Below are positions 13,280 to 62,400 of a stretch of DNA of 64,000 bases, in pieces; the stretch's first letter is position 1, and the number at the start of each line of letters is the position of its first letter. The position numbers and the translations under genes are program-made. The notes under the pieces are model-generated. The model was not told where the DNA came from and made no database searches. It saw nothing but the letters and a program-made list of their open reading frames with translations. Location of the stretch: IMG/VR virus record IMGVR_UViG_3300012931_000667, positions 1 through 64,000 of that record; one strand, written 5' to 3'. This stretch comes from a virus.

Positions 13280-14485
13280 TTATAGAAAACTACTTTCTAA
13301 AATTAGGTCTTTTTCGGTAGAGGAATGATAACTTCCTCTAGTTAGAATATTTAAAGCCGCATTATAATCTGCATCTGCTTCAAATCCACAACTTTTACAT
13401 TGGTATTTCTCTCCTTGACGGTTTGATTTATCAACTTCACCACAATTTGAACAAATTTGACTTGTATAAGCTGGATTTACTTTTATCAATTGAAAACCTT
13501 TCTCTTGACTTCGTATCTCCAGCAAGTCTAAAACTTGGTTATAAGCAAAATATTGTTGTATATTTAATTGTTTTCTACTCAATTTAGATTTATATCTAAG
13601 TAATTTTAAATCTTCACATACTATTTTCTGTACATCATCATATTCATTTAGAAATAAATTAATATTCCTATTTATTGAATCCTTCTTATACTTTAAATAC
13701 TGACTATAATTTTTACTTCCTCGTACTTTATTAGAAAGTTTATTATAAATACTTTCCATTTCTTTACCATAATAGTCTTCATTTGAAGAGGATATCAATT
13801 TTTTATATCCTAAGTCAATACCTATAATTGGACCAACAGATTTTTTTATAGTATCCTCTTTTTCAAACATAAAAATAAATTCAAATTGTCCATTACAATT
13901 CTTTTTTAAAAATACTGTTTTTCTTCTATTCCAATCTTTGTATTTATTATATTGCTTATGATATTTAATGGGTAGATTTATTTGTATAGCTCGATGTTTA
14001 TTCTCATAAAAATAAGGTAATTTTAATCCTACAAATTCATTAAATTCTTTAGAATCAGTACTAAAATTAAATTGACGTTCATCTATAGGAATAGTAATAT
14101 TTTTTAATTGTATTTTAATTCTTTTCATATAGTTTATATTTAGTTCACTAAATTTTTTATTAGTAAATTGACTATGAATTCCTTTTTTAATAAAAATAGC
14201 ATACAATTTTTGATATTTCTTAAATGTTCTGTTTTTAGTATATTTTAAATTACTTCTTATTATTTCAGAAGCTTGTTTATATAATATTGATTTATAGTGA
14301 GAATGACTCAATCTAATTGTAGGTAATTCTTTACAGGATAATAATTTTTTAAAAGGTAAATTACCATTAAGAATTAATTTAATATATTCAGTTAAATCAC
14401 TATTATAATCAGTATATAGTTTTTCAAGTAAAGCTAACTTTTGAGTATTACTAAATTTAAGTGTTACTTTACTTGACCTTACCAT
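13280..14485 (-). CDS. tnpB: TnpB RNA-guided endonuclease
   Basis: RuvC-I IGIDLG, RuvC-II VCEDL, VNPAYTSQICSNC...CKSC zinc finger, RuvC-III DADYNAALNI. Confidence 0.93.
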   Translation of the reverse strand: MVRSSKVTLKFSNTQKLALLEKLYTDYNSDLTEYIKLILNGNLPFKKLLSCKELPTIRLSHSHYKSILYKQASEIIRSNLKYTKNRTFKKYQKLYAIFIKKGIHSQFTNKKFSELNINYMKRIKIQLKNITIPIDERQFNFSTDSKEFNEFVGLKLPYFYENKHRAIQINLPIKYHKQYNKYKDWNRRKTVFLKKNCNGQFEFIFMFEKEDTIKKSVGPIIGIDLGYKKLISSSNEDYYGKEMESIYNKLSNKVRGSKNYSQYLKYKKDSINRNINLFLNEYDDVQKIVCEDLKLLRYKSKLSRKQLNIQQYFAYNQVLDLLEIRSQEKGFQLIKVNPAYTSQICSNCGEVDKSNRQGEKYQCKSCGFEADADYNAALNILTRGSYHSSTEKDLILESSFL

Positions 14486-14504: not shown

Positions 14505-14514
14505 TATATAGTTA
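14505..14514 (-). promoter_or_regulatory. TAACTATWTA putative phage promoter upstream of tnpB
   Basis: TAACTATATA about 20 nt before the tnpB ATG; the same motif recurs upstream of many genes. Confidence 0.5.
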
Positions 14515-14667
14515 AAAACTTTTATATTAACCCTTTTTTCTATACTTTACTATTTTTTACTATAAAATCAATAAACTATCTGTATCCTCTAATATCTACC
14601 ATCATTTAATTATTATTATCATAATATAAAATATTTTAGTATTTCACTCTTGATTTTAGTGTCCATA

Positions 14668-15430: not shown

Positions 15431-16213
15431 TTATCCTTCATAATACATCCAATGAAATCCACCAGCTTTATTTATTTCTCCTCTACAACAAGCTCCAATA
15501 CTTGTTCTATTAACTTTTGTTATTTTTGAAGCTTCATGTATAGATTCATAAACAATATTAGTTTCAATATATAAAACTTTTTTTGAGTTCACATTCAAGT
15601 TCCCTCTTTTACCATACATATGATTTTTTTCACCTAATTGTGCTATAGACATTTTATCTTTATGTTCTTTAGTAAATTTTTTACCTTTTCTTAATATACT
15701 CATTTTTGTTTTTGTTTCTTCTGAAGCTTTTTTTCCTAATTTTGTTTTTCTCATTTTTTCTTTAGATTTTTCAGTATGACTTCTTCCTAACCATATTTTA
15801 TTTCCTTTTTTAATTCTTCTTAAATTGTCTTTAACTTTTTCTGATCTTGGTTTCCCTAATTTTGATAAACTTATTTTTAATTTTGCTTCTTCAGTTAAAC
15901 CTCCATTAGTACCTCCTTCTTTCATATTGTACCCATATTCTTTATTTAGTGTCTTATAGAAACTAATGTAGAAACATTCCAAAATATTTAGAATTAATTG
16001 ATCTTTTCTATTTATGTTTGATAATATCTCAAATTTAAAATTATCTTTTCCATAAGTAATCCAAGATTTTTGTAGATGTTTATTATAATGCTTATTATTA
16101 TTTAATAATTTTTTATGATCTTTCCATCTATTATCAATATTTATGCTTTGACCTATATACTTTTTATTATTAATTAAATTAGTAATACAGTAAATCCCAA
16201 TAATTTTTTCCAT
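15431..16213 (-). CDS. Free-standing GIY-YIG homing endonuclease with NUMOD3 repeats and C-terminal HTH
   Basis: GIYCITNLINNKKYIGQS, GYN, repeated H(S/T)EETKxK(M/I)S-type units, C-terminal ESIHEASK...CCRG...AGGFHW. Confidence 0.9.
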   Translation of the reverse strand: MEKIIGIYCITNLINNKKYIGQSINIDNRWKDHKKLLNNNKHYNKHLQKSWITYGKDNFKFEILSNINRKDQLILNILECFYISFYKTLNKEYGYNMKEGGTNGGLTEEAKLKISLSKLGKPRSEKVKDNLRRIKKGNKIWLGRSHTEKSKEKMRKTKLGKKASEETKTKMSILRKGKKFTKEHKDKMSIAQLGEKNHMYGKRGNLNVNSKKVLYIETNIVYESIHEASKITKVNRTSIGACCRGEINKAGGFHWMYYEG

Positions 16214-16324
16214 TATTTTTCCCTTTTAAGTGGTTCCCGCCACTAATACAAATAGTTAAAAAATTAAAAGAGTTAGCTTAAAATTATTAATTTCGAGCAA
16301 CAGGCGGGAACCTGCTGTCCTCTT
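16214..16324 (-). ncRNA. Structured endonuclease-leader RNA, copy 1 (three-way junction plus kissing hairpin)
   Basis: P1 AAGAG/CTCTT, GAC, P2 AGCAGG-TTCCCG-CCTGTT, P3 GCT..AGC, TAA, T-tract, TAACTATTTG, P4 AGTGG-CGGGAA-CCACT, AAAGGG RBS. Homologous to copies 2 and 3. Confidence 0.8.
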
Positions 16325-16329
16325 CTAAT

Positions 16330-18942
16330 TTATAAAGTTTTATCAATATTATTAAAGGAAATTCCCTCCATTCCTAAAAATCCTGCTACTAATCTTTTAG
16401 TTACTAGTTGTCTTTTATGAATAAAAGAACTTAAAATTAAATCCCCTAGTTCATTTTCTTGTATTGCTAATAATCTTTTCATTTTTGTTTGTCTTTTACA
16501 AATTACATTAAAATTTTTATTTTCATACATGTCAATACCATAAATTAGTAATAAATAATCTTTTCCTCTTACTTTAAGAGAAGGCTGTATCATATATCCA
16601 TTTTGAGCATATTGCCTTTGTACTAATGGTTTAAATACAAAACCTTCACCACCATTTTCAGTATACTCTATCCATGAACTAATACAATTATTTATTGATT
16701 TAGGATCATTAAGATTTACATGAATAGACTCTACACATTTAAACTTATCATTTTCAATTGATCGAATGTATCCTAATTTTTCAATGTTGTCAAGTTCTTT
16801 CCCTAATATCCAATCATACTTATTACCAACTTTATCCCCTAATGCTAATATATTAAATACTCTGCAATATGGTTCTTCTTCTGCAATATAATTCTGTAAT
16901 GACTGCATATATTTATCTACATTAATTAATCCATTAACATCTTTTTTAATTGTTCTATCTATAGTAGCACATTCTCCTATACCTTGGAACTTATTTCTAA
17001 TTAACCATTTTCCTTTTAATGACCATGGCATCATTTCAGTATCAAGTATAGTAACGTCATATTCTAATTGATCTACTATTGAATCATAGAATTCTTGATC
17101 CATACTATCATCATCAAAAAATTTATTACCATTACGAGTATTAATATAAATCAATTTATCCATATTAAAATCTTTAGCTATATCTAATGATTTAAATAGT
17201 AATATATGTGCTCGACTACCCATGTACTTCTTTTCTGCTACAAGTTCAGTTATTCCCCTTGATCTATAATAATCAAAAACTGTAGTAGGGTATTCTAGAT
17301 AATCATTATGATCCTTACTAAAGTCTACAGGAGGAACAGTAGGAGCAATATAAAATATATTAGCACTATTAGTAAGGAATGCTCGATTAGAGTATCCATT
17401 AGAAATCTCTTTACCCTCTATGATATAATCACTAACAGGTAAATATATTTGAGAATGAAAACTAGATGTTTTATAACTAAAAGGTAACTTTCTATTAGGA
17501 TCAGAATTAGCAATTACAGCTAATATAGATGGAGTATCATAATAAGGTACTCCACATCCAGGCATATTTGCTCCATCAAGAATCCAACTATGAATAATAC
17601 TTTCTTTTTTATCTTCTGCTAGTTCAATTCCAGCATAACTAATTTCATATTTATTTTTTTCAAAATAACTACTAACTTCACTTTTGAATTGATCCCATGT
17701 AAACTCTATTTTATGCCCTTTATCCCTATAACCATTATTTCCTTGAATCTTTCCACTATCAAATAATTTTGAATTGTAATCATAATTAGGAGTAGTTAAT
17801 ATTATTACTTTAGGATTAATTACATTTATAATAAAATCCATTAATTGTTTTCTTTCATGGTCATCAAAATGCTCTATGATTTCAGATAACAATACAATAT
17901 CTATAGATTGTGGTAGTATTGATACATTAGGATATAGTAAATTCATTTGATAAAAATGAATATGCTTAAATTTATCTAATCCTCTTCCTGCTTTTTCTGA
18001 TGCATCATAAGCATAGATATCAAAAGGAATATTTTCATCTTTTAATTTATCATTTATCATTACTGATAATCTACCATTAGCACAACCATAATCAATAATA
18101 TTTAAATGTTCTGTTACTACTTGTTTTTCTTTTTGCATTAAACTGTAGTACATTACTACCTGATCACTAATCCATTTATGTCGTAATTGATGTAATGTAG
18201 TAAAATCAATATATAGTTGTTCCTTTACTACCTCTTGATCATCATCAATATCAATTACTGATTCTATAAATTTTTTCTCTAATGACTTATTACTTCTGCA
18301 TAATGTACGAATAATATTTTTAGTATAACTATTATCACTTTCTAACCATTGACACATTTTGATATACTTATCTATTTGTTCATCAGAAATAGGAAACATA
18401 TTATAATTAAAAGTAGAGTATAAACAAATCATAAATACTTTCTGTAATGCTACCTGTAATGTACTTTTAATGGTTAGATGTAATCCATAAGCTACATCAA
18501 AATTATCATATGTTTTAAATACATTAAAACCTAATGAACTAAAGACATTATGAATATCTCCAAAATCACATAAAAATGGTCCTATATCAAAACATATATA
18601 CCTTTCTCTAATGGATTCATCTTTAAGAACTGTACCCTTATTCATAAAATTAATAATTTCATCTTTATAATTATTAGTAAAAGCAGAACGTAAACACTCA
18701 TAGATTGAATTTAAAAAATATGGAGTAACCCCATATAACTGATATGAATTATATACTTCTTCATTTCTTTCTTTTAGTGTAGGAAGTAATTCAGTGAAAC
18801 TTAAATTAGAAGTAATACTATACACATTTCCTAAGTATTCTCCTCTTATTTTATTTTTATCATAAATTGATCCTGGCTTTTTGCATAAAAGGTATGAGAA
18901 TATTGAATCATTTTCCTCACCAGAATAAATATTAAAAAACAT
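16330..18942 (-). CDS. Fusion of Hen1 RNA 2'-O-methyltransferase and Pnkp-type RNA ligase domain
   Basis: Hen1 N-domain FSYLLCKKP. MTase motifs IIDYGCANG, EIIEH, TTPNYDYN, RDKGHKIEFTWDQF. Ligase motifs YIAPTVPP, EKKYMGSRA, GEGFVFKP, LKVRGKDYLLLIYG. Confidence 0.85.
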   Translation of the reverse strand: MFFNIYSGEENDSIFSYLLCKKPGSIYDKNKIRGEYLGNVYSITSNLSFTELLPTLKERNEEVYNSYQLYGVTPYFLNSIYECLRSAFTNNYKDEIINFMNKGTVLKDESIRERYICFDIGPFLCDFGDIHNVFSSLGFNVFKTYDNFDVAYGLHLTIKSTLQVALQKVFMICLYSTFNYNMFPISDEQIDKYIKMCQWLESDNSYTKNIIRTLCRSNKSLEKKFIESVIDIDDDQEVVKEQLYIDFTTLHQLRHKWISDQVVMYYSLMQKEKQVVTEHLNIIDYGCANGRLSVMINDKLKDENIPFDIYAYDASEKAGRGLDKFKHIHFYQMNLLYPNVSILPQSIDIVLLSEIIEHFDDHERKQLMDFIINVINPKVIILTTPNYDYNSKLFDSGKIQGNNGYRDKGHKIEFTWDQFKSEVSSYFEKNKYEISYAGIELAEDKKESIIHSWILDGANMPGCGVPYYDTPSILAVIANSDPNRKLPFSYKTSSFHSQIYLPVSDYIIEGKEISNGYSNRAFLTNSANIFYIAPTVPPVDFSKDHNDYLEYPTTVFDYYRSRGITELVAEKKYMGSRAHILLFKSLDIAKDFNMDKLIYINTRNGNKFFDDDSMDQEFYDSIVDQLEYDVTILDTEMMPWSLKGKWLIRNKFQGIGECATIDRTIKKDVNGLINVDKYMQSLQNYIAEEEPYCRVFNILALGDKVGNKYDWILGKELDNIEKLGYIRSIENDKFKCVESIHVNLNDPKSINNCISSWIEYTENGGEGFVFKPLVQRQYAQNGYMIQPSLKVRGKDYLLLIYGIDMYENKNFNVICKRQTKMKRLLAIQENELGDLILSSFIHKRQLVTKRLVAGFLGMEGISFNNIDKTL

Positions 18943-28711: not shown

Positions 28712-29746
28712 TTATACATAAAATTGTAATATTTCTTCAATAAATTTTTCTTCCCAATAAGGAATTCTAATTAAGTTAATATTATTATTTTTACAATATT
28801 CATTTTTAGTACTATCCCTTTTTTTAATGAGAATAAGATTTTCTTCCCATCCAAATAAATTAATAGCTTCATAGTGCTGTCTACCATCAAATTCTATTAA
28901 ATACTTTAACTTAACTTTTTCTTTATCTTCAAAAATAGCAAAATCAAAGAATAAGGAATAAACATATTTACAATCCTTAATTTTATATTCCTTAATATAA
29001 AAAATATCATTTTTATTTAGATATTGGGTTATTAAAGTTGCTCCTTTTGATTCTTTTCTATTACTAGTACAAATAGAGCATCCAGAATTAAGAATTACCC
29101 TTGTTTTTATACTTGTATACCACTCATGACCACATTCTTTATTTTTCCACCATGCTTTTTTATCAGTTTTAGGATAAATTCTTTTAGGATCAAGACCTAA
29201 TTTATTATTTTTTTCATAATCCCATTCTAATAATAATTCTGGATACTTAAAATATAGAGATTTTTCAATATTATTACAAATAGAATTAGATTTACCAATT
29301 TGTATCATTCCACAATCATAACATTGATGTAACTGTATTTTCTTATTCCTTAGTCTTCCACTTAAAATTTCAAATTCTTTTCCACAATCACATCTAACAA
29401 GATAAATACATTCCTGTCTTTTAGAATCAACTCCTATTTTTTTTAAAACTAATAATTTATCAAATTTCTGTCCAACTAAATCTTTTTGATATGCTTTACC
29501 CATATTTATATAACTACATTTTTTACAACCTTCTCCTAATAAATCTTTAGAAACACTATGCCAGAAATTTCCATGTAAAAAACAAGTGTATTCTACTAAA
29601 GTTTTAGTAGTATTATATGTTTCATTAAATAATCCTATAACTCCTTTTTCATTTTTATATCTTCCAGTTAAAATAATAGGATTTTCTTTATTTTTCCAAA
29701 TTTCATTATGTCTAAAAATAATTTCTTGTTCTGTTAATTTTCTCAT
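28712..29746 (-). CDS. Putative free-standing endonuclease: zinc-ribbon repeats plus C-terminal Vsr/PD-(D/E)XK-like nuclease
   Basis: Multiple CxxC, RCDCG, YPELLLEWDYEKN...CGHEW, and FDFAI...IEFDGRQH...RDxxKNEYC...LIRIPYW. Confidence 0.7.
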   Translation of the reverse strand: MRKLTEQEIIFRHNEIWKNKENPIILTGRYKNEKGVIGLFNETYNTTKTLVEYTCFLHGNFWHSVSKDLLGEGCKKCSYINMGKAYQKDLVGQKFDKLLVLKKIGVDSKRQECIYLVRCDCGKEFEILSGRLRNKKIQLHQCYDCGMIQIGKSNSICNNIEKSLYFKYPELLLEWDYEKNNKLGLDPKRIYPKTDKKAWWKNKECGHEWYTSIKTRVILNSGCSICTSNRKESKGATLITQYLNKNDIFYIKEYKIKDCKYVYSLFFDFAIFEDKEKVKLKYLIEFDGRQHYEAINLFGWEENLILIKKRDSTKNEYCKNNNINLIRIPYWEEKFIEEILQFYV

Positions 29747-47221: not shown

Positions 47222-48556
47222 TTGATAATCCCATCAAAGTTTTCAAATTTAGATTTAAGTGATCCTATTTATAGTTATGCTTTAGATCAATTAGTAAATA
47301 CTAATAATAATCTAAATATAATAGGTTCAGCAGGAACAGGAAAAAGTATATTATTATCTCTTGCTTATGATATGTTAAAAAATCAAGGAAAAAATGTAGT
47401 AGTAGTTTGTCCTACTGGAATTGCTTCTTTTAATTTACAAAAAAAAGGTATTCCTGCTGTAACAATTCATAGCTTTTTTAAACTTCCTCCTGCTTCAGTA
47501 TATAGTTCTGGAATGATTCATATTAATAATAATTTGTATGAATTAATGAATAATATAGATGTATTAATTATAGATGAAGTTTCATTTATGAATTGTTCAT
47601 TATTAGATTTTATACATGAATTACTATTAAACTATAGGTCAAAACAAGAACAAAATATTCCTAGAATGATTCTTTTTGGAGATCCTTTACAATTAGAGTC
47701 TCCAATGGATAAGAAAGATAAAGCAGTAATGAAATATTTTGATGAATTATATGAAGGAAAAATTAATTATTTTAATGCTAACTCTTTTAGAGACTATGGA
47801 TACAAAGTAATTCAACTAACTAAGATATTTAGACAGTCTAATGAAGTATATCAAAGTATTTTTAATCGTGTACGTCAAGGTACACAAACTAATGAGGATT
47901 TAATAATACTAAATGAGCAAGTAATAAGTGAAGAAGAATATTTTAAAAGAAATGAAATGTATTTATATCTCTCCCCTACTAATGCTGGTGCAGATTTAGT
48001 AAATAAAAGTTACTATGATATTCTTGAAGGTAGACCAAGAATGTATGAAACATATATTCATGGTGATGTTGATTTAAGTAAAAAGAAGAATATTCATGAA
48101 AGAATTTACTTAAAAAAAGATTGTCAAGTTATGTGTTTATTTAATGCTCCTGATGGATCATATGTAAATGGAACTTTAGCTAAAGTAACAAAATTAAATG
48201 ATGATGATGTAGAAGCCATAAAAGAAAATGGTGAAATTATTACTATTGGTAGGCATCAACTACAAGATTACAAGTATGATTATAATGAAATTACAAAACA
48301 AATTACATTAAATAAATGTGGAGATATTGATACATTAGGATGTACATTAGGATTTAGCTTGACCTACCATAAAACACAATCTATGAGTTTAGATACCTAT
48401 TATATAGACTTAGCGAAAGGAATGTTTGCTAATGGAATGTTATATGTAGCAATTAGCAGAGCTGTTGATTTTACTAAAGTAGGATTATCTAGACCTTTAG
48501 CACATCAGGATGTAATTGTGTCAAATGAAGCACTTGAATTTTTAGGTACTATCTAA
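47222..48556 (+). CDS. PIF1/RecD-like SF1B helicase
   Basis: GSAGTGKS, CPTG, TIHSFF, IIDEVS, GDPLQL, IFRQ, YVNG, HKTQS, YVAISR. Probable TTG start at 47222. Confidence 0.9.
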   Translation: MIIPSKFSNLDLSDPIYSYALDQLVNTNNNLNIIGSAGTGKSILLSLAYDMLKNQGKNVVVVCPTGIASFNLQKKGIPAVTIHSFFKLPPASVYSSGMIHINNNLYELMNNIDVLIIDEVSFMNCSLLDFIHELLLNYRSKQEQNIPRMILFGDPLQLESPMDKKDKAVMKYFDELYEGKINYFNANSFRDYGYKVIQLTKIFRQSNEVYQSIFNRVRQGTQTNEDLIILNEQVISEEEYFKRNEMYLYLSPTNAGADLVNKSYYDILEGRPRMYETYIHGDVDLSKKKNIHERIYLKKDCQVMCLFNAPDGSYVNGTLAKVTKLNDDDVEAIKENGEIITIGRHQLQDYKYDYNEITKQITLNKCGDIDTLGCTLGFSLTYHKTQSMSLDTYYIDLAKGMFANGMLYVAISRAVDFTKVGLSRPLAHQDVIVSNEALEFLGTI

Positions 48557-48559
48557 ATT

Positions 48560-48672
48560 AAGAGGACAGTAGGTTGACGCCTATTGCTAAAATTATTCCA
48601 GTTTTAGCTAACTCTTTTATTTTTTTTAACTATATAAAATAAAGTTGCGTCAACAACTTAAAAGGAAAAATT
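48560..48672 (+). ncRNA. Structured endonuclease-leader RNA, copy 2
   Basis: P1 AAGAG/CTCTT, GAC, P2 AGTAGG-TTGACG-CCTATT, P3 GCTAAAATT/AGTTTTAGC, TAA, T-tract, TAACTATATA, P4 AAGTTG-CGTCAA-CAACTT, AAAGG RBS. Confidence 0.8.
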
Positions 48673-49524
48673 ATGGAAGAAAAAGTATTGTTACTTGAAG
48701 ATCGTAGATTTTATGTTTATATTTATCTAGACCCTAGAAAACCTGGAAATTACAACTATGGTGAATACCATTTTGATTTTGAACCTTTTTATGTTGGTAA
48801 AGGAAGTGGATATAGAGCTTGGAGTCATTTGCAATCTTATATGTTAAAAGAAACTGGAAATTTAAGAATTAATAAATTTAGAAAAATTATTAATAATGGA
48901 TATAAAATAGAACCTATAATAATTAAAACTAATATTTTAGAAAAAGAATCTTTTTATTATGAAAAATTATTAATTAAATTGATAGGAAGATATGATAAAA
49001 ATAAAGGACCATTAGTTAATCAAACAGATGGTGGAGAGGGTACTTGTGGAACTATTTTTTCTAAAGAAGCTATAGAAAAAATGAGACAAGCTAATTTAGG
49101 TAGAAGATATTCCAATGAAATTAATAAGAAAAAAGGAAGAAAAGGAAGATTAGTTTCAGAGGAAACTAAAGAAAAACATAAACAATATAAAGTTTCTGAA
49201 GAAGTAAAGAGAAAACAATCTAAAAATAAAGAAGGAAATAAAAATCCTAGATTTGGAAAACCAGCAATGAATAGAGTTAAAGTTATTTATGTAAATGAGA
49301 ATAAAGAATTTAATTCTTTATTAGAAGCTGGAGAGTACACTAATAGGTGTTCAAGTGATATTCACAAATGTTGTTCTGGAAAAGTAAAATCAATAGGAAG
49401 AAATAGTGGAAATAAATTTTATTTTATGTATGTATCAACTTATATTAGTTTATCTAATGAAGAAAAAAAACAATTATTATCTAATTTTGATTTAACACAA
49501 CAATTTATCTTAAACCATATATAA
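48673..49524 (+). CDS. Free-standing GIY-YIG-superfamily endonuclease (YVY...FYVGKG type) with NUMOD3/HTH
   Basis: FYVYIYLDPRK...PFYVGKG..R, E...LI, LVNQTDGGEG, SEETKEK units, C-terminal HTH. Confidence 0.8.
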   Translation: MEEKVLLLEDRRFYVYIYLDPRKPGNYNYGEYHFDFEPFYVGKGSGYRAWSHLQSYMLKETGNLRINKFRKIINNGYKIEPIIIKTNILEKESFYYEKLLIKLIGRYDKNKGPLVNQTDGGEGTCGTIFSKEAIEKMRQANLGRRYSNEINKKKGRKGRLVSEETKEKHKQYKVSEEVKRKQSKNKEGNKNPRFGKPAMNRVKVIYVNENKEFNSLLEAGEYTNRCSSDIHKCCSGKVKSIGRNSGNKFYFMYVSTYISLSNEEKKQLLSNFDLTQQFILNHI

Positions 49525-49576
49525 TAATTACCTAAATAAAAATTTTAATTATAAAATATAAGGAGAATAAATAATA

Positions 49577-50149
49577 ATGCATTTTAACGATTATCAGCGA
49601 GAGGCTAGGAAGACTGCAATCTATCCTAAAGAATATAAAATAGTTTATCCTTCATTTGGATTGATGGATGAGTTTACTGAATTTGTAGAAAAAGAAGAAG
49701 ATAGATTTATTAATCATGTTAAAGATATTGAAATTGTAAAAGAAATATTCGATACTTTTTGGTATATTTCTAATTTAATATCTGATATTTATGAAAATAA
49801 AAATTGGAATTATAACTTATATAATGTATTTCCTGATAGTGAAATTGATATTAAAGAATATATAATAGAGAATACTTCAGATATTGACAAATGGGATAAT
49901 CATACTATTTTTAGAAAGATAGGACAAATACAAGGTAAAATAAAAAAGTTATTAAGAAAAGATTATACTGAACTTTCTACAGAAACAATAAATTTTATTA
50001 TTAATAATATTAAATATATAGGTTACTACTTAATTGATAAAGCTAATATATATGGATATGAAATAGAGGATGGATTACAATTGAATATTGATAAGCTTAA
50101 AGATAGACAGGAACGTGGAGTATTAAAAGGGAATGGCGATAATAGATAA
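49577..50149 (+). CDS. MazG-like NTP pyrophosphohydrolase
   Basis: YQREARKTAIYP, KEIFDTFWY, NIDKLKDRQERGVLKGNGDNR. Confidence 0.8.
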   Translation: MHFNDYQREARKTAIYPKEYKIVYPSFGLMDEFTEFVEKEEDRFINHVKDIEIVKEIFDTFWYISNLISDIYENKNWNYNLYNVFPDSEIDIKEYIIENTSDIDKWDNHTIFRKIGQIQGKIKKLLRKDYTELSTETINFIINNIKYIGYYLIDKANIYGYEIEDGLQLNIDKLKDRQERGVLKGNGDNR

Positions 50150-55342: not shown

Positions 55343-55345
55343 TTT

Positions 55346-55465
55346 ATAGGGACAGCAAGGCGCTAACCTTGTTGCTAAGGTAATTCCAGCTTTAGCTAAC
55401 CTATTTTTTAATATTTTTAACTATTTAAAAATAGAAGTCTTTAGCGAGACTTAAAAGGAAAAATT
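55346..55465 (+). ncRNA. Structured endonuclease-leader RNA, copy 3
   Basis: P1 ATAGG/CCTAT, GAC, P2 AGCAAGG-CGCTAA-CCTTGTT, P3 GCTAAGG/CTTTAGC, TAA, T-tract, TAACTATTTA, P4 AAGTCT-TTAGCG-AGACTT, AAAGG RBS. Confidence 0.8.
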
Positions 55466-56416
55466 ATGGAAAATAGATTTCAAGAGGCATTTAGTAAATT
55501 ACCATCAGTTGATTTAGAGCATCAAATTCATTTGAATAGGTATATTAAATTTATTAGTAGCAGACTAGAAAGAAAATTTGAATATAAAAAAGGTTTGTGT
55601 AAACATCATGTACATCCTGTTTCTTTTGGAGCAAATAAAGGTTTTAAAGAAAAATGGAACATAATTGTACTAACAGAAAGAGAACATTTTATTGCTCATT
55701 TAATTCTATATAAATGCTATGGTGGAAAAATGACAAGAGCCTTTTTTATGATGAATAATGGAAAGAATATTTTAAGTGGTAATTATAGTAATTTAAATTC
55801 TAAACAATATGAAAAATTAAGAAAAGAGTATACAGAAAAAATAAGTGGAAAAGGTAATCCTATGTATGGTAAAGAAATGAAGGAAATAAATAAAAAATTA
55901 AGAAAAATTCTTTGGACAGGTAAAAATAATCCTATGTATAATTCAAAAAGATATAAAAATAAAAATCCTTTCTATGGTGAACATCATACTGAAGAAACTA
56001 AGATTAAATTAAAAAAAATAGATAAAACAAAAATAATGAAAAAAGTTATATTATTAAATACTAAAAAAATATTTAATAGTATAACAGAAGCTAGTAAGAT
56101 AACTAATATAAGTGCTAGTTCCATAATAGGTTGTTGTTCACATAATCCAAAAATTACTTGTACTCATTATGGATATGAAAATTATTATTGGTTATATATA
56201 GAAGAGTATGACCCTAATTTTGATTATAGCTATTTATTAGATTCTAAAAAAATTATTTGTATAGAAAAAAATGAAATATTTAATAGTGTAAAAGAATGTT
56301 CATTAAAAATGAATATTTCTGAAACATATTTATCATTATGTTGTAATAATAAAGTAGATTCTGCAAAAGGATATCATTTTATGAAGTATAATGCATATAA
56401 AGGAAAAAATGATTAA
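55466..56416 (+). CDS. Free-standing HNH homing endonuclease (Mob-like) with NUMOD and two HTH repeats
   Basis: KHHVHPVSFG...NIIVLTEREHFIAH, NPMYG/NPFYG, HTEETK, two FNS..E(A/C)S...CC repeats. Confidence 0.85.
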   Translation: MENRFQEAFSKLPSVDLEHQIHLNRYIKFISSRLERKFEYKKGLCKHHVHPVSFGANKGFKEKWNIIVLTEREHFIAHLILYKCYGGKMTRAFFMMNNGKNILSGNYSNLNSKQYEKLRKEYTEKISGKGNPMYGKEMKEINKKLRKILWTGKNNPMYNSKRYKNKNPFYGEHHTEETKIKLKKIDKTKIMKKVILLNTKKIFNSITEASKITNISASSIIGCCSHNPKITCTHYGYENYYWLYIEEYDPNFDYSYLLDSKKIICIEKNEIFNSVKECSLKMNISETYLSLCCNNKVDSAKGYHFMKYNAYKGKND

Positions 56417-58220
56417 TTGTTATTGTAATATGAATACTGGTACTTTTAATTTTAAATTTTCTGAAGATATTCAATATTTTTCTGATATAATTATTTTATT
56501 AAGAGAAAATTATCATTGTACTTATAATAAGGTTATTCATGAATGGTTTACACAAAAAGCATTAGTAGCTCAATCTATTATTTTAGATTTAAAAGCATAT
56601 GATGATGTGTTTATTAGTAAAGAAGATGAAGAACTTATTGAGAATATGATATATCCAAAAGATTTTTCTTATAAAAACATAAAAAAACAAATTAATAATG
56701 AATGGTTAAAAAAATTTCCATGCATAATTGGAAAATCACCTTTTGAGAATTATCAAATGGATACTATCAGATTTTCTTTAAATAGAAATAGAGCTATAAT
56801 ATCTTTAGCACCAGGAACAGGTAAAAGTTATATTATGGAAGCAATTATATCCTCTTTAAAGGATATAGGTAATAAAAAAATATTATGGGTTAATAGATTA
56901 GAAGGACAAACAACTCAATATTACAAAATATTAAAATTTCTTTCTGATTTTTATAATGAAGAAGATGTAAGTATTGTAGAAACTAATAATAGAGAAATAG
57001 AAGACTACTTTAATAAAAAAGTTATTATTACTAACTATACATCATTAAGATTATCAAATGAATATTATTATCATATTAAAAATAAAAAACATAAAAAAGG
57101 AAGTAAGCCAGGAAAAGATTATATTGATTTTAGCAAATGGGGTAAACCAGAGGATTTAATATTAATTCTTGATGAAACACAATCTATATGTAACTATTCA
57201 TCTTTGCAATCTCAAGTAATACAATTTCATAAAAATTATTTTGATACTAGGTATTTAATGTCAGGAAGTATTGGATATAAAATTTTGGATTATTTTGCAT
57301 TATGTAAAGTATTAATTCCAGAATCTGTTCCTTATTCTTTTTCAGAATTTAGAGACTATCTATCAGTTAGAGGTACTTATGGTAAAGAATTAATTCCTGA
57401 ACGAGTGAAAAAGTTTAAAGAAAAAGTAATTGATAAAATACAAATTAGTTATGGTGAAGAAGTACTAGATTTAAAACCATTTATTGAAGAAGAAGTATTT
57501 ATAGATATGTCACCTAAAATGAGAAAAATGTATAAAGATTTTGTTGATGATAAAGTGAATGTAATTGAACATAAAAAAGATAGTGTTAATATTAGTACTA
57601 TAGAAGCAAATTTTGGATCATTACTATTATTTACTTCTGATCCTATACTACTAAACTTTCCTAATTGGAAATTTACTGAAAATCCTAAAATTGATTATTT
57701 AAAATCAATGCTAGAAAGATATATTGATGATGAGGGTAGAAAAGTAGTAGTATGGTCTAATCATCCTATGGTTATTAATGAATTAGGAAAAGTATTTAAT
57801 AAATATGACCCTATAATTATACATGGTGATGAAAGTACTTCAGTTAAAAGAAAAATGAGAGATAAATTAATACAAGATTTTAGAACTAATAATAATAAGC
57901 ATCTACTTATATGTTCATATGTACTTAACTCTTCTATTGATTTATATGAAGCTACTAGAGAAGTATATTGGGATAATATTACAGATAATGATAAACGTGA
58001 TCAATCTAAAAAAAGATTATGGAGATTGGGACAATTAGAATCTGTTAAATCTCATTATTTCCTCTTTGATAAATCAATAGATATATATTGTTATTATGAA
58101 ATACTATGTAGAAAAAATAAAGTTAGAAATTTATTAATGGAAAAAAACAAACTATCATTAGAAGATTATGCTACAGTATTTAATGCTAAAGCTCAATATT
58201 ATTGGAAAGATACTGATTGA
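56409..58220 (+). CDS. SF2 (SNF2-like) helicase
   Basis: PGTGKS, LDETQ, MSG, ENPK, VVVWS, IHG, QSKKRLWRLGQ. Start reassigned to 56409. Confidence 0.8.
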   Translation: MINCYCNMNTGTFNFKFSEDIQYFSDIIILLRENYHCTYNKVIHEWFTQKALVAQSIILDLKAYDDVFISKEDEELIENMIYPKDFSYKNIKKQINNEWLKKFPCIIGKSPFENYQMDTIRFSLNRNRAIISLAPGTGKSYIMEAIISSLKDIGNKKILWVNRLEGQTTQYYKILKFLSDFYNEEDVSIVETNNREIEDYFNKKVIITNYTSLRLSNEYYYHIKNKKHKKGSKPGKDYIDFSKWGKPEDLILILDETQSICNYSSLQSQVIQFHKNYFDTRYLMSGSIGYKILDYFALCKVLIPESVPYSFSEFRDYLSVRGTYGKELIPERVKKFKEKVIDKIQISYGEEVLDLKPFIEEEVFIDMSPKMRKMYKDFVDDKVNVIEHKKDSVNISTIEANFGSLLLFTSDPILLNFPNWKFTENPKIDYLKSMLERYIDDEGRKVVVWSNHPMVINELGKVFNKYDPIIIHGDESTSVKRKMRDKLIQDFRTNNNKHLLICSYVLNSSIDLYEATREVYWDNITDNDKRDQSKKRLWRLGQLESVKSHYFLFDKSIDIYCYYEILCRKNKVRNLLMEKNKLSLEDYATVFNAKAQYYWKDTD

Positions 58221-61464: not shown

Positions 61465-62400
61465 ATGATTATAGGTATTTATAAAATAAGTAACAAAGTT
61501 AATGGAAAGGTTTATATTGGACAATCTTGGAATATTGAAAAAAGATTTAAAGAACATAGAAAAAGAGAACTTAATAATCATTTAAAAAATGCTTTTAATA
61601 AATATGAAATTGAAAATTTTTCTTTTGAAATAATAATGACCTTTAAAAATGGTCCCTTTACTCAAAAATATTTAGATAAATTTGAAGATTATTACATTAA
61701 ATTTTATGATTCAATGAATAGTAAAAAAGGATATAATAAACGTGAAGGAGGAAGTAATGGAAAGATGTCTAAAGAGTCAAAAATTAAAATAGGTAATGCT
61801 AGTAGAGGTGAAAAAAATGCTAATTATGGAAAAAAATTTTCTAAAGAAACCTTATTTAAAATGAGAATAGCTAAATTAGGAATTAAACAATCTGAAGAAC
61901 TTAAAATAAAAAGAGGAATATATAAAAAAGGAAAAGATAATCCTCACTATGGCATTATTCGTTCTGATGAAACAAAATATAAAATAAAAATTAGTAGAAA
62001 TAAAATGGCTGTTGTCTGTATAGAGACTAAAGAAAAATTTGATTCTGTAACAGAAGCTAGTAAAAAATATAAAATAGATAAAAAATCAATATTAAATGTT
62101 TGTAGAAATATTATCAATTATAATACTGCTGGTGGCTTTCATTGGATGTTTTTAAGTGATTATGATGAAAATAAAATTTATAATTTTAGAAAAAACAAAA
62201 CAAATGAAATTAAGGTAATAAATATAGATACTATGGAAATTTTTGATTCAATTACAAAAGCCGCTAAAAAATATAATTTATCTATTTCTAATATTCATTC
62301 TTGTTGTAATAAAAAACAAAAAACTGCTGGTGGTTATCAATGGATGTACTATATTGAATATTTAAAATTAGGACTTGACAAGAAAAGTATAATATGTTAG
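61465..62400 (+). CDS. Free-standing GIY-YIG homing endonuclease with NUMOD3 and two HTH repeats
   Basis: GIYKISNKVNGKVYIGQS, GYN, two FDS.T.A.K...AGG.(H/Q)W repeats. Confidence 0.9.
   Translation: MIIGIYKISNKVNGKVYIGQSWNIEKRFKEHRKRELNNHLKNAFNKYEIENFSFEIIMTFKNGPFTQKYLDKFEDYYIKFYDSMNSKKGYNKREGGSNGKMSKESKIKIGNASRGEKNANYGKKFSKETLFKMRIAKLGIKQSEELKIKRGIYKKGKDNPHYGIIRSDETKYKIKISRNKMAVVCIETKEKFDSVTEASKKYKIDKKSILNVCRNIINYNTAGGFHWMFLSDYDENKIYNFRKNKTNEIKVINIDTMEIFDSITKAAKKYNLSISNIHSCCNKKQKTAGGYQWMYYIEYLKLGLDKKSIIC

Follow-up and report, generated by a model that had tools for sequence, protein, structure and literature searches.

The stretch analyzed here, referred to throughout as the window, comprises the first 64,000 nucleotides of the 77.9-kb IMG/VR virus record IMGVR_UViG_3300012931_000667, an uncultured wetland phage, and at three sites within it a homing-endonuclease gene is preceded by a structured leader element of ~116-123 nt that spans the gap from an upstream stop codon to the endonuclease ATG (Table 1). 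All three leaders share one order, in which a 5-bp helix P1 is followed by GA, the P2 hairpin, the P3 hairpin, (C)UAA, the closing strand P1', an unpaired spacer carrying TAACTAT / TTTTTAACTAT, the P4 hairpin, AAAAGG and the ATG. Within each copy the P4 loop is the exact reverse complement of the P2 loop, and the loop sequences differ between copies (TTCCCG/CGGGAA, TTGACG/CGTCAA and CGCTAA/TTAGCG in copies 1, 2 and 3, respectively). A sequence-only reading of the window had described both the layout and this copy-specific loop complementarity, and both hold at the three sites with small corrections: the helices proposed there stand, whereas their limits shift, since P2 is 7-8 bp long and starts at the C of 'GAC', and the P3 hairpin drawn as GCT...AGC cedes its closing G to P2, leaving CUAAAA/UUUUAG in copy 2. 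BLAST of the leader against the whole record located a fourth copy beyond the window, directly after a family-A DNA polymerase gene and upstream of a 256-aa endonuclease-VII-like open reading frame (ORF), with 7-nt loops (CTACTAA/TTAGTAG) and covarying P1 (AAAGG/CCUUU) and P3 (AUUGAA/UUCAAU) helices. The copies stand out only weakly by minimum free energy (MFE), with z-scores of -1.7 to -2.5 and, in copy 4, of +0.7; such values are to be expected of an A/U-rich RNA whose pseudoknots lie beyond the scoring of the folding program.

We searched IMG/VR, GTDB genomes and metagenome contigs with a pattern derived from P2 and the junction and sorted the matches with a parser, a looser initial pattern having returned mostly chance matches. 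Membership was decided by P1 pairing and the P3 stem only, with the kiss between the P2 and P4 loops left out of the rule, and this yielded 65 distinct sequences. An exact 6-7 nt complement of the P2 loop lies shortly downstream, inside a hairpin, in 57 of these 65 kiss-blind members, compared with 1 of 65 for a direct repeat of the P2 loop at that length; the kiss is therefore not a product of chance. Chance pattern matches in G+C-rich coding DNA lacked the P2-loop complement. P1, P3, P4 and the kiss were left free by the search pattern, which fixed P2 and the junction, so that conservation of the latter two is partly imposed. Covariance model R1 recovered all copies, matched all five positive-control virus records (G001-G005) and added off-pattern members (L160, L208:4378, L126:10982 and L132:7473) in which inner P2 pairs have varied and the kiss is kept in all four. 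Between them, the pattern and covariance-model searches place more than 60 distinct members in contigs of other phages and of metagenomes. The covariance model and homologue scan had been suggested in the sequence-only reading, and loop complementarity was found to persist in most of the further homologues.

In an alignment of 66 sequences to the model, 95.5% of pair cells are paired, a share that falls to 67.7% on shuffling and to 33-47% on shifting the partner by 1-3 columns; 23 of 28 pairs change on both sides. All six pairs of the kissing helix covary (91.8% paired), the unpaired cells being mostly a register shift in 7-nt loops, and 60 members carry 42 distinct loop codes. P1 pairs covary family-wide, and P2 is 96.5% paired with a third pair that is never Watson-Crick (G.U in 53 of 66 sequences, A.C or U.U in the rest). 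Around the junction and P2 lie ~20 nearly invariant nucleotides; every one of the 66 aligned sequences has GA(C) and (C)UAA flanking P1, and the junction GGAC...CUAAC fits the sequence signature of the UAA/GAN tertiary motif. The proposal of a covarying structured RNA with a 6-7 bp loop-loop contact is thus borne out, and we assign the structure to the sense-strand RNA because of its G.U pairs and its constant co-orientation with the downstream gene. Two loops whose complementarity is kept by compensatory change, the mark of a kissing complex, are present here as judged from the alignment. Three-way junctions without a P4 hairpin also occur (L196:~2780, L248 and L315:559-663), one of them adjoining a tRNA gene, and may represent decay or variation of the full element; L248 retains a 9-nt match between its P3 loop and the Shine-Dalgarno downstream.

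The association with endonucleases extends across the family, as 51 of 53 downstream ORFs are of nuclease or homing-endonuclease type, covering GIY-YIG, HNH, EndoVII-like and DUF559/MTES-type proteins with NUMOD modules. The idea that the leader is portable is upheld by these unrelated endonuclease families, and the assignments first given to the cargo in the window (classical GIY-YIG, divergent GIY-YIG and HNH) hold, now as GIY-YIG plus NUMOD3, LEM-3-like GIY-YIG and HNH-type. Of 34 members with a co-directional ORF upstream, 28 have its stop codon within 15 nt of P1; tRNA genes precede other members.

A second long-range contact, missed in the sequence-only reading, connects the P3 loop to the initiation region of its own gene, where it is complementary to the Shine-Dalgarno or the start-codon region. 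Following a first set of 25 members, the full test on 57 non-redundant members gave a longest Watson-Crick match averaging 6.3 nt in cis versus 4.9 nt in trans and a duplex energy of -7.6 versus -5.3 kcal/mol, and none of 50,000 permutations reached the cis value of the match (p < 2e-5). Thirty of the 33 matches of at least 6 nt cover either the AUG (18) or the Shine-Dalgarno region (12), as illustrated by the loop/target pairs UUCUCCAA/UUGGAGAA in L125, UUUUCAUCGA/UCGAUGAA in L130 and CAGAUUCA/UGAAUCUG in L153. The same cis/trans comparison between spacer and initiation region gave p = 0.2 and hence no specific pairing, which indicates that the method discriminates. Pairing of the U-rich spacer with the A-rich initiation region, which appears in MFE folds, was accordingly set aside as compositional.

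These results bear on whether the element might act at the level of DNA, as an inverted repeat for recombination, homing or cassette shuffling, and not as an RNA structure. The leader does move with mobile genes, is repeated within genomes and in these respects resembles PeSL promoter/stem-loop cassettes (PMC4122927). The G.U, A.C and U.U positions are nonetheless strand-specific, compensatory changes maintain the pairing but not the sequence, each P3 loop varies in step with the Shine-Dalgarno or AUG of the gene behind it, and the orientation is always that of the gene; we give a purely DNA-level role an almost negligible probability.

Between the two structured halves, the spacer carries a box whose sequence depends on the lineage and whose distance to P4 is similar, such that a lineage-specific box at a fixed distance from P4 is found in 50 of 60 members. 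Twenty-eight members carry TAACTAT, 26 of them at 7-13 nt before P4 and the other two at 2 and 5 nt. TACTAAT or TACTATT is found in 10 members, at 4-8 nt before P4, and TATAAATA, the T4 late-promoter consensus, in 11, at -1 to 5 nt before P4. The T-tract previously listed as a shared element is not a family feature; it is missing in the members with this T4-type box. The T-rich sequence TTTAACTAT occurs seven times in the record, each time shortly before a gene of matching orientation: four of the sites are the leaders, one precedes a transposase gene and two precede other genes, one TTTAACTAT site heading a gene run that ends in a weak terminase-like ORF. The T4 late-promoter consensus is used in front of endonuclease genes (PMC2988022). 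Placement and spacing suggest that the spacer box is a phage promoter from which transcription would start at the foot of P4 with the usual promoter geometry. The earlier proposal of a promoter between the two halves therefore stands as regards a promoter-like box at a fixed distance from P4. The transposase-like ORF (401 aa, phrog_506), presumably of IS605/TnpB type, has a T-rich TTTAACTAT box in front of it and neither a three-way junction nor a P4 hairpin.

Downstream of P4, which lies 12-20 nt ahead of the Shine-Dalgarno or start codon, 60 members share an A-rich tail with the consensus UAAAAGGnAAAA, in which position 4 is A in 59 of 60. The 14 nt after P4 are conserved in all members, and the tail is retained even by those whose real Shine-Dalgarno (GGAG) comes another 15-20 nt downstream; it could be a triplex strand, an A-minor strand or an S1 site.

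We propose that the element is a cis-acting leader RNA that locks endonuclease translation on read-through transcripts and is bypassed by an internal promoter, a reading that we hold with moderate confidence. On read-through transcripts the upstream P1-P2-P3 three-way junction would fold first, the P2 loop would dock on the P4 loop through the 6-7 bp kiss, and the kiss would bring the P3 loop onto the Shine-Dalgarno or start codon, thus blocking binding of the 30S subunit. In most members the putative phage promoter in the unpaired spacer would start transcription at the foot of P4, and the shorter transcripts would retain P4, perhaps as a protective 5' hairpin, and would be translatable without the three-way junction. 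The fold, both long-range complementarities, the box with its spacing and the cargo are directly observed; promoter activity of the box, formation of the contacts in vivo and repression of translation are what we infer. Because the P3 loop pairs with the Shine-Dalgarno or AUG, we regard a translational lock as the best reading.

Several observations weigh against this proposal. Ten of 60 members (~1 in 6) have no recognizable box and some spacers measure just 1-9 nt, so a promoter bypass cannot apply throughout the family, and the window holds no more TAACTAT-like sites than chance would give, leaving only their placement as informative. The P3-loop contact is modest in the copies at hand: UUAUUCCA in copy 2 matches UGGAAGAA at 7 of 8 positions, the exception being an A.G mismatch (in the closely related L216 and L251 the 8-bp UUCUUCCA/UGGAAGAA match is perfect), the contact is just 5 bp in copies 3 and 4, and the 9-bp match of copy 1 falls at codons 3-5. 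A simple antisense lock would moreover not call for so strongly conserved a junction, nor for the P2 stem sequence and the UAAAAGGnAAAA tail, with the qualification that conservation of P2 and the junction is partly imposed by the pattern used to collect members.

Since a plain lock leaves the junction GGAC...CUAAC and the UAAAAGGnAAAA tail unexplained, we keep two alternatives alive. The first is a processing or stability module, in which the coaxial P2-kiss-P4 stack (~18-24 bp) or the junction is an RNase III or RNase E site or a new self-cleaving ribozyme; cleavage would free the endonuclease message from the upstream mRNA and P4 would then shield the new 5' end. The nearly invariant nucleotides at the junction and P2, the third P2 pair that always departs from Watson-Crick geometry and the position of P4 at the predicted 5' end of the short transcript speak for such a module. 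Against it, the conservation is partly a product of the search pattern, no Rfam ribozyme family matches, and the copy-specific complementarity of the P3 loop to the Shine-Dalgarno or AUG would be left without a reason, and we consider it rather unlikely. The second alternative, a platform that recruits a conserved factor (for example a ribosomal protein or S1, a phage translational repressor, or the 30S subunit at a standby site), with the kiss just setting the geometry, would account for a junction, P2 sequence and tail that are conserved while the other helices vary freely, and the unrelated cargo nucleases would require a protein partner common to all. No candidate partner gene co-occurs with the leader, however, members are spread across phage lineages with three promoter types, and P3-loop pairing explains repression without a protein; such a platform appears decidedly unlikely.

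The persistence of P4 and its loop on the predicted short transcript raises a further alternative, in which the junction on upstream transcripts acts in trans as an antitoxin-like antisense RNA that kisses the P4 of separate endonuclease mRNAs through private codes. The antisense RNAs of CopA/CopT and RNA I/RNA II first recognize their targets by 6-7 nt GC-rich loop kisses, and the record holds four copies with four different codes. The two halves of the element are nevertheless always adjacent in cis, and the terminated upstream RNA envisaged in the sequence-only reading finds no support, as no terminator-like site follows P1' (none was found in 48300-49700 of the window) and the T4-type members have no T-tract. 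Nor do the distinct codes argue for avoidance of cross-talk, as had been suggested: ~1.5% of random member pairs share a loop code by arithmetic from the code counts of 60 members, and 0 identical codes among 9 within-record pairs is in line with the chance expectation (~0.14 expected) from overall code diversity. We therefore judge the trans-acting antisense very improbable. P1 plus the T-tract was also considered as an intrinsic terminator and rejected, P1 being 5 bp and A/U-rich, with no terminator-like site and with the T-tract missing in T4-type members. Taken more broadly, the leader might go beyond a passive lock and be an addressable device, in which either the upstream RNA with the junction acts in trans on the short endonuclease mRNAs, its private 6-7 nt codes forming several independent natural switches in one genome, or the junction is a new ribozyme or a processing site made by an RNase that acts on the kissing stack; we consider such a device unlikely.

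Loop-loop kissing complexes are familiar from ColE1 RNA I/RNA II, R1 CopA/CopT, HIV-1 DIS and TAR-TAR*, and the present leader likewise pairs two fully Watson-Crick complementary loops of 6-7 nt. Unlike in those complexes, its loops lie in cis on one mRNA, ~75 nt apart and flanking a promoter-like box, and nearly every copy has a different loop sequence. The closest functional parallel is with the leaders of T-even endonuclease genes (I-TevI, I-TevII, I-TevIII, segB and Aeh1 mobE), for which structures that sequester the ribosome-binding site (RBS) and embed a late or middle promoter are established (PMC2988022). As in those cases, our element lies directly upstream of a homing-endonuclease ORF, its initiation region may pair with upstream sequence on read-through transcripts (through 5-9 bp in the window copies), and a promoter inside the element, here putative, would give a shorter transcript without the inhibitory part. 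The T-even leaders are, however, simple local hairpins that enclose the RBS and form no common sequence family (PMC2988022), whereas here a conserved three-way junction and a distant hairpin are connected by a covarying kiss with a second loop-to-RBS contact, and the fold is common to several nuclease families and phage lineages, model R1 being negative in T4 and phage 25. PeSL cassettes of T4-like phages are similarly short repeated units of promoter and stem-loop that flank variable or mobile genes and probably aid modular shuffling (PMC2839356, PMC4122927). They are described there as units of terminator and early promoter in hyperplastic regions, and no three-way junction, loop-loop covariation, RBS pairing or endonuclease link is reported for them. 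Long-range pairing that silences the mRNA of a harmful protein until a shorter form appears is also found in type I toxin mRNA locks (hok fbi/tac; H. pylori aapA1, PMC6733600), which need 3' processing and a separate antisense RNA, whereas for the present leader we propose an internal promoter and see no antisense gene.

A comparison with Rfam 15, which took in the hammerhead, twister, pistol, hatchet, preQ1-II and RAGATH motifs, gave no match over the window at gathering thresholds (best sub-threshold scores of 18-20 bits against thresholds of 47-80), in agreement with the earlier claim of novelty. Screening with model R1 gave no match in T4, Aeromonas phage 25, Geobacillus virus E3, Campylobacter phages CP220 and NCTC12673 or Tenacibaculum phage PTm1 and a single 19.7-bit match (E 0.7) in Aeh1, so that no cultured carrier emerged among the cultured phages screened. 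BLAST of the region against cultured phages gave no match, and the PolA gene has just distant matches (~29% identity) in Rhizobium and Agrobacterium phages. The sequencing runs that match this DNA are wetland-metagenome DNA runs, two of them covering the whole stretch, with no RNA run among them. No description was found in the full-text literature or in two motif catalogues, whose supplementary tables may hold an unnamed listing. The regulatory logic is known; the RNA family and its architecture are new.

Among the selfish genes of large phages, homing endonucleases are the commonest, and to our knowledge control of the harm they do to their carrier is documented for just a handful of T-even cases, in each of which a separate ad hoc hairpin is used. 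If the translational lock is correct, a conserved and portable RNA module would restrain endonucleases from four or more nuclease superfamilies in many lineages of uncultured phages. The leader would add a well-supported new class to the structured-RNA catalogue, with unusually clean evidence for a cis kissing loop plus a programmable anti-RBS loop. It may also provide a handle for predicting phage promoters and their timing, and its mutually distinct loop codes form a natural set that could be reused as orthogonal RNA switches.

Table 1. Positions of the leaders, their parts, their cargo and adjacent genes; numbering is that of the window, continued along the record for copy 4.
Feature	Position	Strand	Details
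Copy 2, whole leader	48557..48672	+	from PIF1/Dda-like helicase gene stop to endonuclease ATG; model R1 101.4 bits, E 1.3e-17
Copy 2, P1 5' strand	48560..48564	+	AAGAG; pairs with CTCTT 48612-48616; reproduced by MFE fold
Copy 2, junction J1/2	48565..48566	+	GA; invariant across family
Copy 2, P2 hairpin	48567..48586	+	CAGUAGG / L2 UUGACG (48574-48579) / CCUAUUG; G.U at third pair
Copy 2, P3 hairpin	48587..48607	+	CUAAAA / L3 UUAUUCCAG (48593-48601) / UUUUAG
Copy 2, junction J3/1	48608..48611	+	CUAA; conserved, including in matches found solely by covariance model
Copy 2, P1 3' strand	48612..48616	+	CUCUU; partner of 48560-48564
Copy 2, unpaired spacer	48617..48641	+	promoter-like box TAACTAT 48627-48633, ending 8 nt before P4
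Copy 2, P4 hairpin	48642..48659	+	AAGUUG / L4 CGUCAA (48648-48653) / CAACUU; L4 is exact reverse complement of L2
Copy 2, A-rich tail	48660..48675	+	AAAAGGAAAAAUU; Shine-Dalgarno AAGGA 48662-48666; ATG 48673-48675; conserved tail 48660-48672
Copy 2, L3 target	48674-48681	+	UGGAA(GAA) at start codon; complementary to L3
Copy 2, cargo	48673..49524	+	283-aa LEM-3-like GIY-YIG homing endonuclease; PF22945 6.7e-11; phrog_314 homing endonuclease
Copy 1, whole leader	16214..16329	-	model R1 93.6 bits; P1 16324-16320 with 16272-16268; L2 UUCCCG 16310-16305
Copy 1, downstream half	16258-16229	-	box TAACTAT 16258-16252; P4 16244-16229; L4 CGGGAA 16239-16234
Copy 1, conserved tail	16228-16214	-	
Copy 1, cargo	15431..16213	-	260-aa classical GIY-YIG + NUMOD3 endonuclease
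Copy 3, whole leader	55343..55465	+	model R1 76.7 bits; P1 55346-55350 with 55400-55404
Copy 3, P2 and P3	55353-55374; 55375-55395	+	L2 CGCUAA 55361-55366
Copy 3, box and P4	55418-55424; 55435-55452	+	L4 UUAGCG 55441-55446
Copy 3, conserved tail	55453-55465	+	
Copy 3, cargo	55466..56416	+	316-aa HNH-type homing endonuclease, NUMOD1 + NUMOD3; phrog_655 7.6e-27; phrog_12434 HNH endonuclease
Copy 4, leader	~75,477-75,591		L004:1450-1564
Copy 4, leader and ORF	~75477-76362		L004:1450-2335
Transposase-like ORF	13280-14485	-	T-rich TTTAACTAT box 14508-14516
870-aa protein	16330-18942	-	stop codon 16330-16332
SNF2/ResIII-type helicase gene	56391-58220		
Endonuclease-like ORF, no leader	28712-29746	-	
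Endonuclease-like ORF, no leader	61465-62400	+	GIY-YIG

Two more endonuclease-like ORFs in the window have no leader, one of which, on the plus strand, is a GIY-YIG protein 36% identical to the copy 1 cargo that starts 2 nt past an upstream stop codon. Among the T4-type members (with the TATAAATA box), the flanks of L131, L132 and L135 show leader and endonuclease situated between tRNA genes, like segB in T4. The copy 3 HNH ORF runs 26 nt into the beginning of the SNF2/ResIII-type helicase gene that lies downstream. The copy 1 leader adjoins the stop codon of an 870-aa protein in which a methyltransferase domain is joined to a PNKP-type ligase/adenylyltransferase domain, and which looks like a phage-borne fused Pnkp/Hen1-style RNA-repair enzyme.

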